From the NCBI RefSeq assembly GCF_000027125.1, contig NC_017626.1: a DNA stretch of 64,000 bases. One strand, written 5' to 3'. The notes under the pieces were generated by a model, which saw only the letters and a program-made list of their open reading frames with translations, ran no database searches and was not told the DNA's origin. Below are positions 3,798 to 9,756 of the stretch, piece after piece. This stretch comes from Escherichia coli 042 (GTDB lineage Bacteria; Pseudomonadota; Gammaproteobacteria; Enterobacterales; Enterobacteriaceae). Position 1 is the stretch's first letter, and each line of letters starts with the position of its first letter. The translations under genes and the position numbers were made by a program.

Positions 3798-5450
3798 TTA
3801 CGCGCTCAACAGTTGCTTCATGTCTTCTTCAACAGTGGTGATAGAACGCAGGCCGAATTTCTCGTTCAGCACCGCCAGCAGATCTGGTGTCAGGAAACCT
3901 GGTGCAGTCGGGCCGGTGACGATATTTTTCACACCCAGAGAAAGCAGTGTCAGCAGAATGACAATCGCTTTCTGTTCAAACCAGGAGAGCACCAGTGACA
4001 GCGGCAGATCGTTGACACCGCAGCCCAGTTTTTCTGCCAGCGTTACCGCCAGAATAATTGCTGAGTAAGCATCGTTACACTGACCAGCATCCACCAGACG
4101 CGGCAGACCTTCGATATCGCCAAACTCGAGTTTGTTAAAGCGATATTTACCACAGGCGAGAGTCAGGATCAGACAGTCATCCGGCACGCTGGTGGCGAAA
4201 TCGGTGAAGTAGTGACGCTCGCCGCGTGCGCCGTCACAGCCGCCAAGCAGGAAGATATGACGCAGTTTTTCACGGCTCACCAGATCAATCAGCGTATCGG
4301 CTGCGCCAAGCAGTGTCTGGCGACCAAAGCCCACGGTGATCAGGTGCGGAATTTCGCTGTACGGGAAGCCCGCCATCTGTTGCGCCTGGGCAATGACCGC
4401 AGAGAAATCTTCGCCATCCAGATGACGCACACCCGGCCAGCCAACGATGCTGCGGGTCCAGATACGATCGTCATAAGCGCCTACGGTTGGGTCGATGATG
4501 CAGTTCGAGGTCATCACGATGGGGCCAGGGAAACGAGCGAACTCCACTTGCTGATTCTGCCAGCCGCTGCCGTAGTTACCGACCAGATGCTTGAATTTAC
4601 GCAGCTCCGGGTAGCCATGCGCAGGCAGCATTTCACCGTGGGTGTAGACATTAACGCCCGTGCCTTCGGTCTGTTCCAGCAGGTTGTAGAGATCTTTGAG
4701 ATCGTGACCGGAAATCAGAATGCATTTACCTGCCGTCGCTTTGACGTTGACCTGGGTTGGGGTCGGGTGACCGTATTTACCGGTTTCGCCTGCGTCCAGA
4801 ATGCTCATCACTTTGAAGTTCATCTGGCCGATTTCCATTGAACACTCAAGAAGCGCGTTCATATCGGCAGGCCAGGTTCCCAGCCACGCCATGATTTTAT
4901 GGTACTGGGCATAAATATCGTTGTCGTATTGACCGAGAACATGCGCGTGTTCCATATAGGCCGCCGCACCTTTCAGGCCATACAGGCACAGCAGGCGCAG
5001 GCCGAGAATGTTTTCGCCAATCGCCGCTTTATCTTTGTTAGGGGTAAATTCTGCTGCCTGACGTTGCAGCTCGCCGAGATCATCGCTCACCAGTTGCAGG
5101 TCAGCCATCGGGTTATCGACGCGGGCGTTGGCATCTACAGCCAGGCATTGTGCTTTCAGCGCCTCGCGCAGGGCAATCGCTTCACGAGCGTAGCCGACTA
5201 TACGCGGAGAATCGAAGTTAACGTTGGTCAGGGTTGAGAAAAATGCGCGTGGCGCAAAGCTGTCTACATCGTGGTTGATGATGCCGTATTCACGCGCTTT
5301 TACCGCCCAGGCCGAAAGCCCTTGCAGCGCCGCGATGAGTAAATCCTGAAGGTCAGAGGTTTCCGCCGTTTTACCACACATCCCCTGCGCGTATGAGCAG
5401 CCGTTTCCTGCCGGAGTACGGATAGTTTGTTCACATTGCACACAAAACAT
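3798..5450 (-). CDS. hcp: Hybrid-cluster protein (hydroxylamine reductase / NO-stress protein)
   Basis: ORF with start refined to [27 protein letters not shown] (N-terminal Cys motif); 550 aa. Confidence 0.93.
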
Positions 5451-5546
5451 GATCACACCTTTTAAAGTTATATTTAATATACATGTTTAAGGTTAAGACG
5501 CTTAACGCAGGGATAAAAGGGATTTTTCATGCAACTTTAAGGGAGA

Positions 5547-5593: not shown

Positions 5594-6493
5594 TTACGCG
5601 GAAAAAAAGGCGATGAGGATCGGCACTAACAGGCTAAGAATAAAACCGTGAACAATCGCCGCCGGGACCATATCCAGCCCGCCAGTACGTTGAAGAACGG
5701 GCAGGGTGAAATCCATCGACGTGGCACCGCATAAGCCCAGTGCAGTAGAGCGGCTGCGGCGAATCAGCCCAGGGATCAACATAATAGCAATCAGCTCACG
5801 GGCCAGATCATTAAAAAACGCCGCGCTCCCGATTACCGGACCAAAAGATTCGGTCAATAAAATACCGGAAAGAGAATACCAGCCGAAACCGGAGGCCATT
5901 GCCAGCGCGGTATTGATGGGAAGATCAAGAATAAAGGCGTTAATTAAACCACCAATTAATGAACTGGCAATCACCACCACGGCGACAATCATTCCCCGGC
6001 GATTAAGGACAATCTGCTTTAAGGTCATGCCATTATTGCGCAACTGAATACCGACGAGGAAAAGTAGCAGAATTAAGGTGTATTCACTGGCTTCGGTCGC
6101 ATGTTGTAAGAAAGCCAGTCCACTCAGGCCAATGGCAAAACCAATCACTACTACGCCGCACAGTTTTAGCGACTCCAGCGCCATCGCAATACGCGACGGG
6201 AGTTTTTCTTGCTGGTGGTGATTGCGCCACGGCAGACCGCGCTCCAGCCACAACAACGCAATAATATTGCAGAGTAAAATAATGGTAATGCTGACGGCGG
6301 AATAATGCAGAATCGCCAACAGGTTACTGGCGAGGTTATCGAGAAACGCCAGACTGATACCCATAAAAAAGAGAATGAGGTAAACCATCCAACTTAATAG
6401 CTGATTAATAACTTTTAATGCAGCTTTTTGGCGAAGCGGAATGAGGTAACCCACAATCAGGGGAACCAGAATGATTAACAGCCCAGAAAACAT
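5594..6493 (-). CDS. lysO: Lysine exporter, inner-membrane protein (YbjE/LysO family)
   Basis: ORF 5594-6541 (GTG-extended); start refined to MFSGLLIILVPLIVGYLIPL..., giving 299 aa; highly hydrophobic. Confidence 0.8.
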   Translation of the reverse strand: MFSGLLIILVPLIVGYLIPLRQKAALKVINQLLSWMVYLILFFMGISLAFLDNLASNLLAILHYSAVSITIILLCNIIALLWLERGLPWRNHHQQEKLPSRIAMALESLKLCGVVVIGFAIGLSGLAFLQHATEASEYTLILLLFLVGIQLRNNGMTLKQIVLNRRGMIVAVVVIASSLIGGLINAFILDLPINTALAMASGFGWYSLSGILLTESFGPVIGSAAFFNDLARELIAIMLIPGLIRRSRSTALGLCGATSMDFTLPVLQRTGGLDMVPAAIVHGFILSLLVPILIAFFSA

Positions 6494-6938
6494 GAAAACC
6501 CAGTCCTTGCAAAGATGAAGTCGAAATGCGCGATGACACACTACTGAAAGCGGAAGGACGAGTAAAGTTGCAATTAAAAGGAAATGTTATGGATAAGGAT
6601 CGTTAGGGTATTCATTTTCATTTAAAGATATTCTTGCGCTTTAATTACAAACCGCACCGGTGTTGGTGGCGTCAAAATCGCCGAGGCGTTCCCTGAAGGC
6701 CGGGGCAGCCCACATGGATGTGGGCTGAGGGCGCGTTTTACAGGGATGTTACCTCGCGCCCGACCCGGTAGCCGCAAGGGATAAGTCGAGGGCACCGCGC
6801 AGCGGCGATTTTGTTCGCCAGAGCCCGGGGGTGCAGGGGGCGGCGGCGATTGGCCGCCCCCTGCGCGCTCCCTGCGCCAGTGACTATATGTGGCTTAACA
6901 CATCAAGGAGCGCAACAGGAAGATGAATCAATATATTT

Positions 6939-6966
6939 AAAAAAGGCCTGACATTGCGCCAGGCCT
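6939..6966 (-). terminator. Rho-independent terminator downstream of aqpZ
   Basis: 7-bp stem aggcctg/caggcct (6944-6950 and 6960-6966) followed on the minus strand by a T6 run (plus-strand A-run 6939-6944); 11 bp after the aqpZ stop. Confidence 0.7.
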
Positions 6967-6976
6967 TCTGCGTTAA

Positions 6977-7672
6977 TTAATTACGTTTTTCCAGCAGGGT
7001 CCGGTAAATCAGACCACCGATAATGCCGCCGACAATTGGCACCACCCAGAAGAACCACAGTTGTTCTAATGCCCAGCCGCCCTGGAAGATAGCAACCGCG
7101 GTGCTGCGCGCCGGGTTAACAGAAGTGTTAGTCACCGGAATACTGATTAAGTGAATCAGGGTTAAGGCCAGACCAATAGCGATCGGCGCAAAACCAGCAG
7201 GAGCGAATTTGTCGGTTGCGCCGTGGATCACCAGCAGGAAACCTGCACTCAATACCAGTTCAACTACCAGCGCGGAAAGCATGGAATAACCGCCTGGCGA
7301 ATGCTCGCCATAACCGTTAGAAGCAAAACCGCTGGCTGCCGCGTCAAAACCCGTTTTACCACTGGCAATTAAATACAGCAGCGCCGCTGCAACAATACCG
7401 CCGACAACCTGGGCAATTACGTAGCCAACGACTTCTTTTGCCGGAAAACGTCCGCCAGCCCATAAACCAATAGTGACCGCCGGGTTAAAATGACCACCAG
7501 AAATGTGACCAACAGCAAAGGCCATCGTCAGAACGGTCAGACCGAACGCCAACGCCACGCCGGCAAAACCAATGCCTAATTCCGGGAAGCCTGCGGCCAG
7601 TACGGCACTACCACAGCCACCAAAAACAAGCCAGAAAGTACCAAAACATTCAGCTGCTAATTTTCTGAACAT
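6977..7672 (-). CDS. aqpZ: Aquaporin Z (MIP family water channel)
   Basis: [24 protein letters not shown]...; both NPA motifs present ([14 protein letters not shown]); 231 aa. Confidence 0.94.
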
Positions 7673-8097: not shown

Positions 8098-9756
8098 ATG
8101 ATTCTTGAGCGCGTTGAAATTGTGGGTTTTCGCGGTATCAACCGTTTGTCGTTGATGCTGGAACAATACAACGTCCTGATTGGGGAGAACGCGTGGGGTA
8201 AATCCAGCTTGCTGGACGCCTTAACTCTGCTGCTATCGCCAGAATCAGATCTCTACCATTTTGAGCGCGACGATTTCTGGTTCCCGCCGGGAGATATCAA
8301 CGGTCGGGAACATCATCTGCATATTATTTTGACCTTCCGCGAATCGCTGCCAGGCCGACATCGGGTTCGCCGCTATCGGCCGCTGGAAGCGTGCTGGACG
8401 CCATGCACCGATGGCTATCACCGTATTTTTTATCGTCTGGAAGGGGAGAGTGCGGAAGACGGCAGCGTGATGACACTGCGCAGTTTTCTCGATAAAGACG
8501 GACATCCGATTGATGTCGAGGATATTAACGATCAGGCACGCCATCTGGTGCGTTTAATGCCGGTGCTGCGCTTGCGTGATGCCCGTTTTATGCGCCGTAT
8601 TCGTAACGGCACGGTGCCAAATGTCCCTAATGTGGAAGTCACCGCGCGCCAGCTCGATTTCCTCGCCCGTGAGTTGTCCTCACATCCGCAAAATCTCTCT
8701 GATGGACAGATTCGTCAGGGACTTTCCGCAATGGTACAGCTGCTTGAGCATTATTTCTCTGAGCAGGGGGCCGGACAGGCGCGATATCGTTTAATGCGGC
8801 GGCGAGCCAGCAATGAGCAACGAAGCTGGCGCTATCTGGATATCATCAACCGGATGATTGACCGACCTGGTGGGCGCTCGTATCGGGTTATTTTGCTCGG
8901 CCTGTTTGCTACTTTGTTGCAGGCAAAAGGCACATTGCGGCTGGATAAAGACGCCCGTCCATTATTGCTGATTGAAGATCCAGAAACCCGTTTACACCCC
9001 ATTATGCTTTCAGTTGCCTGGCATCTGTTGAACCTTCTGCCATTGCAGCGCATCGCTACTACCAACTCGGGAGAGTTGCTTTCGTTAACGCCGGTAGAGC
9101 ATGTTTGCCGACTGGTACGTGAGTCCTCTCGCGTTGCCGCCTGGCGTCTGGGACCGAGTGGCTTGAGTACCGAAGATAGCCGACGCATATCCTTTCACAT
9201 TCGTTTTAACCGTCCGTCATCGCTGTTTGCCCGTTGTTGGCTGCTGGTGGAAGGGGAAACGGAAACCTGGGTTATCAATGAACTGGCGCGTCAGTGCGGA
9301 CATCATTTTGATGCCGAAGGGATCAAGGTCATTGAGTTTGCCCAGTCCGGGCTAAAGCCACTGGTTAAATTTGCCCGGCGAATGGGGATTGAATGGCATG
9401 TACTGGTCGATGGCGATGAAGCAGGGAAGAAATATGCCGCTACGGTACGCAGCCTGTTGAATAACGATCGGGAAGCCGAACGAGAACATTTAACGGCGTT
9501 ACCGGCGCTGGATATGGAACATTTTATGTATCGGCAGGGATTTTCCGATGTGTTCCACCGCGTGGCGCAAATCCCGGAAAATGTACCGATGAATCTGCGC
9601 AAAATTATCTCGAAAGCGATCCATCGCTCTTCCAAACCCGATCTTGCCATTGAAGTGGCAATGGAGGCAGGACGTCGTGGTGTGGATTCCGTACCGACGC
9701 TGCTGAAAAAAATGTTCTCACGCGTGCTGTGGCTGGCGCGCGGTCGCGCGGATTAA
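8098..9756 (+). CDS. ybjD: OLD-family ATP-dependent nuclease-like protein (N-terminal ABC/AAA ATPase, C-terminal Toprim)
   Basis: 552-aa ORF with GGAGG RBS; Walker A GENAWGKSS; Walker B-like LLLIEDPE; Toprim-like LLVEGETE ... VLVDGDEAG. Confidence 0.85.
   Translation: MILERVEIVGFRGINRLSLMLEQYNVLIGENAWGKSSLLDALTLLLSPESDLYHFERDDFWFPPGDINGREHHLHIILTFRESLPGRHRVRRYRPLEACWTPCTDGYHRIFYRLEGESAEDGSVMTLRSFLDKDGHPIDVEDINDQARHLVRLMPVLRLRDARFMRRIRNGTVPNVPNVEVTARQLDFLARELSSHPQNLSDGQIRQGLSAMVQLLEHYFSEQGAGQARYRLMRRRASNEQRSWRYLDIINRMIDRPGGRSYRVILLGLFATLLQAKGTLRLDKDARPLLLIEDPETRLHPIMLSVAWHLLNLLPLQRIATTNSGELLSLTPVEHVCRLVRESSRVAAWRLGPSGLSTEDSRRISFHIRFNRPSSLFARCWLLVEGETETWVINELARQCGHHFDAEGIKVIEFAQSGLKPLVKFARRMGIEWHVLVDGDEAGKKYAATVRSLLNNDREAEREHLTALPALDMEHFMYRQGFSDVFHRVAQIPENVPMNLRKIISKAIHRSSKPDLAIEVAMEAGRRGVDSVPTLLKKMFSRVLWLARGRAD

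Follow-up and report, generated by a model that had tools for sequence, protein, structure and literature searches.

The hairpin cluster between aqpZ and lysO of Escherichia coli 042 is the repeat TRIP1a (RRS-lysO), a family that appears to conserve a multi-helix fold with two GGA loops

The stretch of DNA analysed here (the window) comprises 64,000 nucleotides of Escherichia coli 042 (NC_017626.1) and contains, between the genes aqpZ and lysO, a GC-rich cluster of hairpins. This cluster is genuinely there, and it is the element TRIP1a, also called RRS-lysO, which has already been described and experimentally characterised. The explanation that we prefer, with a probability of about 0.75, is that the element is the aqpZ-lysO copy of the enterobacterial repeat TRIP1 and acts by the published mechanism, in which the G-rich strand adopts a stable fold that blocks lagging-strand synthesis. 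The element itself is a rediscovery: its first listing dates from 1999, and experimental work on it began to appear in 2023. The comparison presented here bears on an active question, namely which part of the element is functional. Evolution keeps the Watson-Crick fold and two GGA loops, whereas neither the G runs nor the direction relative to the replication fork are preserved.

The assignment rests on several agreements. The locus is 95.2% identical to that of strain MG1655 over positions 5-337 of the query, with identical flanking genes, and the published G-quadruplex (G4) motif GGGGGTGCAGGGGGCGGCGG is present as an exact match on the + strand at 6827-6846 (PMC11194060), where it has a G4Hunter-type score of 1.84. 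The published TRIP1a has in common with the window element its position 158 bp upstream of lysO (ybjE) and about 70 bp downstream of aqpZ, and its size of about 266 bp (Li et al., PMC10888264). The paralogues known from the literature were recovered as well. K-12 carries, besides the aqpZ-lysO copy, an inverted copy at yohP-dusC (yohI), which lies on the opposite strand and has 93.8% identity over 274 bp (L007), and an internally deleted copy at putP-efeU (ycdN), which retains both ends and lacks the middle (L008). The window copy differs from the K-12 TRIP1a by about 5%; otherwise, the identity is without difference. In the K-12 reference NC_000913.3, no feature is annotated at the aqpZ-lysO element.

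TRIP1 was first listed by Rudd in 1999, and the family was resurveyed in 2024 by Li et al. in 6725 genomes (PMC10888264). These authors described TRIP1a-e, which vary in direction and are predicted to adopt a 'double Y' RNA fold, and reported 156 rearrangements, TRIP1a-TRIP1c being involved in most of them (PMC10888264). The preliminary description of this region had suggested a boxC-like intergenic repeat, and had named dispersed near-identical copies as the sign of a known repeat family. Such copies were indeed found; the region is an intergenic repeat, but of the TRIP1/RRS family. BoxC, a short motif with a triplex-forming purine/pyrimidine (PIT) composition, differs in size and architecture and was set apart by its description (PMC4666352).

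The copies at lysO and dusC were renamed replication risk sequences (RRS) by Pham, Cox, Goodman et al. (PMC10287960; PMC11194060). Both lie about 650 kb from dif, one on each side (Pham et al., PMC10287960; PMC11194060), and in K-12 the sense strand with GGGGGTGCAGGGGGCGGCGG is the lagging-strand template at both loci (PMC11194060). For K-12, gaps that reach about 2 kb in the lagging strand and become covered by SSB and RecA have been described (Pham et al., PMC10287960; PMC11194060), and the RecA and SSB peaks detected by ssGap-seq are lost on deletion of the corresponding RRS (PMC10287960). In vitro, the DNA polymerases I, II and IV are halted at the G4 site (PMC11194060). The RRS are also active at ectopic sites and are conditionally essential (PMC11194060): both could be removed only together with an amplification of about 200 kb or by replacement with inverted copies, and inverted RRS cause no gaps in vivo but alter supercoiling (Pham et al., PMC11194060). 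A recent preprint reports gap formation at the single-molecule level, at nearly every encounter in vitro; when the complementary strand takes the place of the lagging-strand template, gaps arise in about 66% of cases (bioRxiv 2026.06.16.732529). CsrA or an RNA product is not mentioned in the RRS papers (PMC10287960, PMC11194060, bioRxiv 2026.06.16.732529). Applied to the window, the mechanism would start with the fork unwinding the duplex and exposing the G-rich + strand as lagging-strand template. This strand would then fold very stably and block DNA polymerases at the G-run segment, and the block would leave a lagging-strand gap onto which SSB and RecA are loaded. From the comparison below, we infer that the blocking structure that has been conserved is the stable fold more than a G-quadruplex, and the conserved loops would imply a sequence-specific partner beyond the replication model.

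In the window, the element occupies 6626-6917 on the + strand. Its extent is based on BLAST between copies, on alignments and on an nhmmer match (6645-6925), and its identity on the published accounts (PMC10888264, PMC11194060). The similarity between copies begins at about 6626 (6652 in the K-12 yohP-dusC copy) and ends at ggagcgcaaca. A GC-rich element of about 230 bp had been proposed here; the hairpin cluster is real, but it is larger and reaches from 6626 or 6654 to 6917. The GC content is 0.68 at 6700-6899 and 0.41-0.55 in the surroundings. Single-sequence folding of 6654-6917 gave -145.4 kcal/mol for the + strand (z = -4.98, equalled by 0 of 200 shuffles) and -133.7 kcal/mol for the - strand (z = -5.46), the G-rich (+) strand being 11.7 kcal/mol more stable than its complement. 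The gene order around the element is hcp (3798-5456, -), lysO (5594-6493, -), aqpZ (6977-7672, -) and ybjD (8098-9756, +).

The predicted fold of the + strand begins with the 5' strand of a long closing stem (6654-6680), which consists of an outer part (6654-6671) and the helix P1 (aaaatcg, 6674-6680) and is based on the single-sequence fold, on duplexes predicted per subfamily and on covariation. A junction stem (6681-6796; helices 2-5), with its 5' strand at about 6681-6704 and its 3' strand at about 6765-6796, surrounds hairpin 1 (6706-6727; helix 6), which has the loop CAUGGAUG at 6713-6720, and hairpin 2 (6729-6761; helices 7 and 8), which has the loop CAGGGAUG at 6741-6748. A small hairpin, ccgc-gca-gcgg (6795-6805; helix 9), precedes the 3' strands of P1 (cgatttt, 6806-6812) and of the outer closing stem (6816-6832), both placed by the folds and by covariation. 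Hairpin 3 (ugca-gggggcggc...gccgccccc-ugcg, 6832-6865; helices 10 and 11) and a terminal helix of cgcucc (6866-6871) with ggagcg (6907-6912), which holds a variable insert (6866-6912; helix 12), complete the structure. The three perfect hairpins that had been noticed beforehand, agcccacat-gg-atgtgggct (6707-6726), gggcgcg...cgcgccc (6729-6761) and cagggggcggc...gccgccccctg (6834-6863), are all present in the window sequence. The long-range repeat that had been suggested as a possible closure of the first two, caaaatcgccg (6673-6683) with cggcgattttg (6803-6813), is present in its letters but is not one helix as a whole: only aaaatcg/cgatttt pair as P1, whereas the ccg and cgg ends go to other covarying helices, and P1 is continued outward by the pairing of 6654-6671 with 6816-6832.

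This fold was compared in 43 non-redundant copies from about eight genera, which were aligned with MAFFT and folded with RNAalifold. The consensus has 59 pairs in 12 helices, with 98.5% of the cells being standard pairs, and consists of P1, the junction stem with hairpins 1 and 2, the small hairpin, hairpin 3 and the terminal helix. Changes on both sides occur in 24 of the 59 pairs, and the covariation score of 0.342 was reached by none of 500 shuffles (0.158) and compares with 0.04-0.08 for slid partners. The comparative data thus indicate that the hairpins are under selection and not a product of chance, as the preliminary description had left to be decided by compensatory substitutions. Such changes are spread over the structure: they affect three of the nine pairs of hairpin 1 (99.5% paired), 5 of 16 pairs of the junction stem, whose 3' strand includes the conserved GGGAUAAG, three of the four pairs of the small hairpin (100% paired) and 7 of 10 pairs of hairpin 3. 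The outer part of the closing stem was predicted as a duplex for each sequence because of indels in the alignment; in every subfamily, the 20-25 nucleotides before P1 pair with the linker after P1 to give a long closing stem, although the pairs themselves vary by subfamily (UGGCG:CGCCA, UGGCC:GGCCA, CCGGC:GCCGG). The alignment contains 69 G.U cells and 12 C.A cells, and therefore the folding strand is the + strand of the window, i.e. the published G4 strand. However, G.T wobble in single-stranded DNA would produce an equal strand bias.

The terminal helix changes from CGCUCC/GGAGCG to CGUUCA/UGAACG in other genera. Since GGAGCG covaries as a helix strand, the Shine-Dalgarno-like GGAG within it is structural and not a conserved ribosome site. 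This bears on the idea that the element is a small-ORF (open reading frame) leader or a type I toxin locus with AAGGAG at 6905-6910 as ribosome site and ATG at 6921 as start, the GGAG being sequestered by GCGCUCC. The Shine-Dalgarno-like sequence and the ATG do exist, but the frames in four copies have 5, 9, 3 and 27 codons and are unrelated, and with GGAGCG replaced by UGAACG and the partner compensating, this strand belongs to a helix; we consider the idea extremely improbable.

Several observations weigh against a purely G4-based replication block and, to some degree, against the preferred explanation as a whole. A G4Hunter-type score of at least 1.5 is found in only 24 of the 43 copies; the subfamilies of Citrobacter and Pseudescherichia reach about 1.0-1.2, and the G-run motif is missing in 19 of the 43, while hairpin 3 is retained through G-C to A-U swaps in copies without G runs. 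In the alignments, the feature conserved throughout the family is the multi-helix Watson-Crick fold of the G-rich strand, and not a G4. The number of copies also deviates from one terminus-flanking pair, with about 13 in Klebsiella and at least 7 in Enterobacter sp. ENT03. The orientation to the flanking genes, and with it that to the fork, varies in nature at both loci. The local GC skew around 35 single copies (11 positive, 24 negative) is too noisy for the replication strand to be deduced from it, but it gives no sign of a fixed placement on the lagging-strand template. In addition, inverted RRS produced no gaps in vivo and yet rescued viability (PMC11194060). Finally, the invariant letters of the GGA loops are not explained by a stable fold alone.

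The natural variation in orientation is considerable. The arrangement found in the window is missing at aqpZ-lysO in 1399 of 5425 E. coli genomes (about 26%), and the K-12 arrangement is missing at yohP-dusC in 2109 of the 5425 (about 39%). The genomes sampled among the 1399 (ST540, AF5) carry the aqpZ-lysO element in inverted direction, with different flanks and a divergence of about 8-10%. The yohP-dusC element is inverted in strain C9, and by eye, the inverted alleles of both loci are closer to each other than to the K-12 alleles. In the allele type of Eco889, which includes ST131 genomes, both GGA hairpins are deleted and the G-run region is retained, which makes this allele of RRS-lysO a natural separation-of-function allele. 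In Eco889 itself (L014, 631-799 and the upstream junction), a deletion of 75 bp lies between CGCCGA and GCCCGA. The copies of AF5 and of putP-efeU have lost the entire central domain at short direct repeats.

These rearrangements also speak against a cis-acting element on the - strand, be it a 5' leader or riboswitch of lysO, as the preliminary description had considered, or a 3' element of aqpZ. The position between the two genes and the regulation of lysO by lysine would fit a leader, and for aqpZ, the inverted allele is co-oriented with the gene with no strong terminator in between. However, the folding strand, the Rfam match and the sole mapped start site (both discussed below) are all on the + strand and thus antisense to lysO; the element is set off from the lysO start by about 160 bp of AT-rich DNA that probably contains the promoter region of lysO; the orientation varies among strains, with both central hairpins gone in the Eco889 type; and other copies adjoin genes unrelated to lysO. 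The leader reading thus does not hold, and a - strand cis element of either kind is extremely improbable. At Rfam's gathering level, nothing exceeded the threshold and no riboswitch was matched.

Below that level, the + strand of the window copy gives a full-length match to the family TwoAYGGAY (RF01731) with 29.8 bits (E = 0.061; gathering cut-off 43 bits), and the other copies, many of them likewise matched over the full length on the + strand, score 26.8-42.7 bits, all below the cut-off. The Rfam search proposed beforehand therefore returned a match, but a sub-threshold one. TwoAYGGAY shares the Rfam clan CL00106 with CsrB and was predicted to bind CsrA by Gardner and Eldai (PMC4333381). 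The element agrees with the defining features of this family: the loops AUGGAU (6714-6719) and AGGGAU (6742-6747) correspond to AYGGAY, with a purine at the second loop position occurring also in Psychromonas members, P1 covaries, and each subfamily has a predicted outer extension of it. The pattern CA-N-GGA-Y-G is retained in the loops of both hairpins; in hairpin 2, C-A-N-G-G-A-Y-G is found in all 43 copies, though this loop lay outside the search pattern, and among 17 diverged partner copies found by profile search only, GGA is kept in 33 of 34 loops while the stems covary. Two copies with an insertion of about 75 nucleotides in the 3' side of the junction stem have gained a third CAGGGAUG hairpin, GCCCCAGGGAUGGGGC (L022, about 3371-3333; L050, about 8634-8672). 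Rfam matches to STnc250 and naRNA4 near some copies belong to a neighbouring terminator and to REP units.

These observations suggest that the element might also, or mainly, be a gene for a structured small RNA (sRNA) of the TwoAYGGAY type, transcribed from the + strand, that sequesters CsrA or recruits it locally, a reading that is possible but short of probable and is compatible with a DNA-level effect. A CsrA dimer would be bound by the two CA-N-GGA-Y-G loops, which the long closing stem surrounds and which are spaced by 28 nucleotides, and these loops fit the CsrA SELEX consensus RUACARGGAUGU. An orientation-independent product would moreover account for the rescue of viability by the gapless inverted RRS, and the Psychromonas members of TwoAYGGAY are likewise multi-copy with the same AGGGAY loop variants. 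On the other hand, all copies stay below the Rfam cut-off, the TRIP1 profile showed no similarity to the Psychromonas TwoAYGGAY sequences in nhmmer, the loops alone being alike, and both GGA hairpins have been deleted without obvious harm in the Eco889 type, the putP-efeU copy and the K-12 yegH-asmA copy.

In the Cappable-seq data for K-12, the listing of which ends before the dusC and putP copies, U00096.2 914241 is a start site on the + strand; its relative read score is 1.552, just over the cut-off of that study, and its equivalent in the window, checked by sequence context, is 6654 (PMC4782308 supplement). This is exactly the first base of the predicted closing stem. We take the shift from U00096.2 to NC_000913.3 to be +777, which places the site at 915018 (L003 2519). 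A stronger + strand start site, with a score of 10.37, is located about 190 nucleotides upstream at U00096.2 914051, antisense within the lysO coding sequence. A consensus scan of 6400-7100 for promoters and terminators found no site. Once the start site had been placed, a weak promoter-like sequence could be discerned at 6617-6645 (+), with ttcatt (6617-6622) and tttaat (6640-6645) separated by 17 nucleotides; it matches 8 of 12 consensus bases, below the threshold of the scan tool. No intrinsic terminator follows the element. The first stop signal facing a + strand transcript is the aqpZ terminator hairpin (aggcctg...caggcct, 6939-6968), which carries its T run on the - strand, lies outside the repeat and is missing from the inverted allele. 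The SMRT-Cappable-seq and Term-seq tables have no entry at the aqpZ-lysO locus, nor do the CsrA CLIP-seq tables for the neighbouring genes or coordinates, all of these tables being gene-centred or cut short and thus weak negatives. If it exists, any RNA from the element is rare in laboratory K-12.

The distribution of the family provides the context for a third explanation, according to which the element is a selfish or decaying dispersed repeat, spread by a trans-acting enzyme or by recombination between REP clusters, with side effects on replication as its only function in the host. By megablast, 5426 complete E. coli genomes have a median of 3 places and up to 8 per genome; blastn against a plasmid collection that includes mislabelled chromosomes brought up a Klebsiella pneumoniae chromosome with 13 places and an E. 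coli record with 10. The range in E. coli is 1-10 copies. All the matches in the plasmid collection are rows marked non-mobilizable, several of the records have megabase size, and chromosomal genes surround the element at the three loci that were inspected. When species-representative genomes were scanned once with an exact pattern, this yielded 67 loci in Escherichia, Citrobacter, Klebsiella, Raoultella, Kluyvera, Pseudocitrobacter, Pseudescherichia and an Enterobacter sp., and none in Salmonella. A search of a phage collection gave no match. Near-identical copies in metagenome-assembled genomes labelled Desulfacinum (L030), Sporobacter termitidis (L063) and Proteobacteria (L025) have flanks like those of Klebsiella or E. 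coli, and these contigs are probably misbinned.

Variable copy number, polymorphic presence and orientation, and recurrent internal and 5' deletions at short direct repeats are what such a repeat would show. The copies lie after co-oriented genes or face convergent ones, hence at the 3' ends of genes, and of 57 copies none is located between divergent genes. Citrobacter, Kluyvera and Pseudocitrobacter usually have two copies, one standard and one diverged, joined head-to-head with the P1 motifs 117-134 bp apart. The spacer of such pairs is AT-rich and partly palindromic, for example TTGCTG-N16/17-TAAAAAT (L011, L020, L026, L031, L032, L036, L037, L046, L052, L061, L062, L064-L066, L080). This arrangement could represent two divergent promoters, or it could serve to offer a G-rich lagging-strand template at either fork direction.

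REP units occur beside the yegH-asmA and Klebsiella copies. In Klebsiella pneumoniae ATCC 13883 (L055-L060), the copies have REP-like units (GCCGGGTGGCGGCTGCGCCTTACCCGGCCTAC) on both sides, and the repeat is therefore embedded there in BIME-like clusters. Inside the element, no REP unit, i.e. a palindrome of 35-40 bp of the GCCTGATGCGACGC...CTTATCAGGCCTAC type, is present, in line with the earlier impression that the sequence does not match the REP consensus. The yegH-asmA spacer, a locus absent from the published TRIP1a-e, harbours a more diverged member of the family, which is full-length in an ST131 strain (L087), 5'-truncated and without the GGA hairpins in K-12 (L086), inverted between two inverted REP units in GF4-3 (L084) and missing in strain 23AR0806 (L085). 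Some strains have a RelE/ParE toxin-antitoxin pair at this place instead. In an IMG/VR contig (L015), the inverted-type aqpZ-lysO element (762-956) is cut inside hairpin 3, in the G-run region, and is followed by an ORF (1006-2229) of 407 amino acids that by eye resembles an IS4-family transposase; insertions may thus be targeted to the GC-rich hairpin GGGGG...CCCCC.

However, no linked transposase gene was found beside the family copies examined, and the allele junctions at aqpZ-lysO, yohP-dusC and yegH-asmA show neither terminal inverted repeats nor target-site duplications, by which a miniature inverted-repeat transposable element was rejected. The empty yegH-asmA allele is best explained as a deletion between REP arms. 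Together with the strong purifying selection on pairs and loop letters across genera and the published conditional essentiality (PMC11194060), this makes a selfish repeat distinctly unlikely.

We therefore retain the published replication block as the preferred explanation for RRS-lysO. A second role at the RNA level, as a CsrA-binding RNA, is plausible without being probable, because the GGA loops are conserved, the TwoAYGGAY match is near the threshold and the start site coincides with the closing stem. In its stronger form, the RRS and TRIP1 copies would be CsrA-binding RNA genes, a GC-rich enterobacterial branch of TwoAYGGAY, and the effects on essentiality and topology would partly or wholly reflect the loss of the RNA or its partner; this we hold to be rather unlikely. 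If true, the CsrA-binding reading would give TwoAYGGAY, which is common in gut metagenomes, its first function and make it tractable in E. coli as a model. Separating the roles of the loops and the G runs could either support the replication-gap model or expose the second, RNA-level role.

Compared with known systems, the element does not differ from TRIP1/RRS, but the TRIP1 and RRS papers do not mention the link to Rfam, the covariation, the conservation of the GGA loops, the mapped start site or the fact that other genera have lost the G runs. In its fold, the element is similar to an RNA family grouped with CsrB in Rfam. With TwoAYGGAY it shares a long closing stem around two adjacent hairpins on the same strand, A-Y/R-G-G-A-Y loops and a multi-copy occurrence, and the original alignment of Weinberg et al. 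(2010) contains multi-copy Psychromonas members with ACAUGGAUGU and ACAGGGACGU loops, as in TRIP1. In contrast to that family, TRIP1 is GC-rich and has about 110 additional nucleotides at the 3' end, which form hairpin 3 and the terminal helix. CsrB, CsrC and RsmY are similar in having GGA in hairpin loops in a CAGGAUG-like context. However, TRIP1 has only 2-3 such sites rather than 9-22, no UvrY/GacA box was identified, its expression is at best weak in laboratory K-12, and its binding of CsrA is putative. REP/BIME and REPIN sequences are likewise dispersed, palindromic, GC-rich, located at gene 3' ends and arranged as inverted doublets in some genomes, but the TRIP1 unit is 7-8 times longer than REP/BIME and has a complex multi-helix fold with no internal REP consensus. 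The pilE G4 of Neisseria gonorrhoeae (cited in PMC11194060) is comparable as a programmed DNA structure that gives rise to a replication gap. It is, however, a simple G4 linked to antigenic variation, whereas the G runs of the RRS are lineage-specific and lie inside a conserved hairpin.

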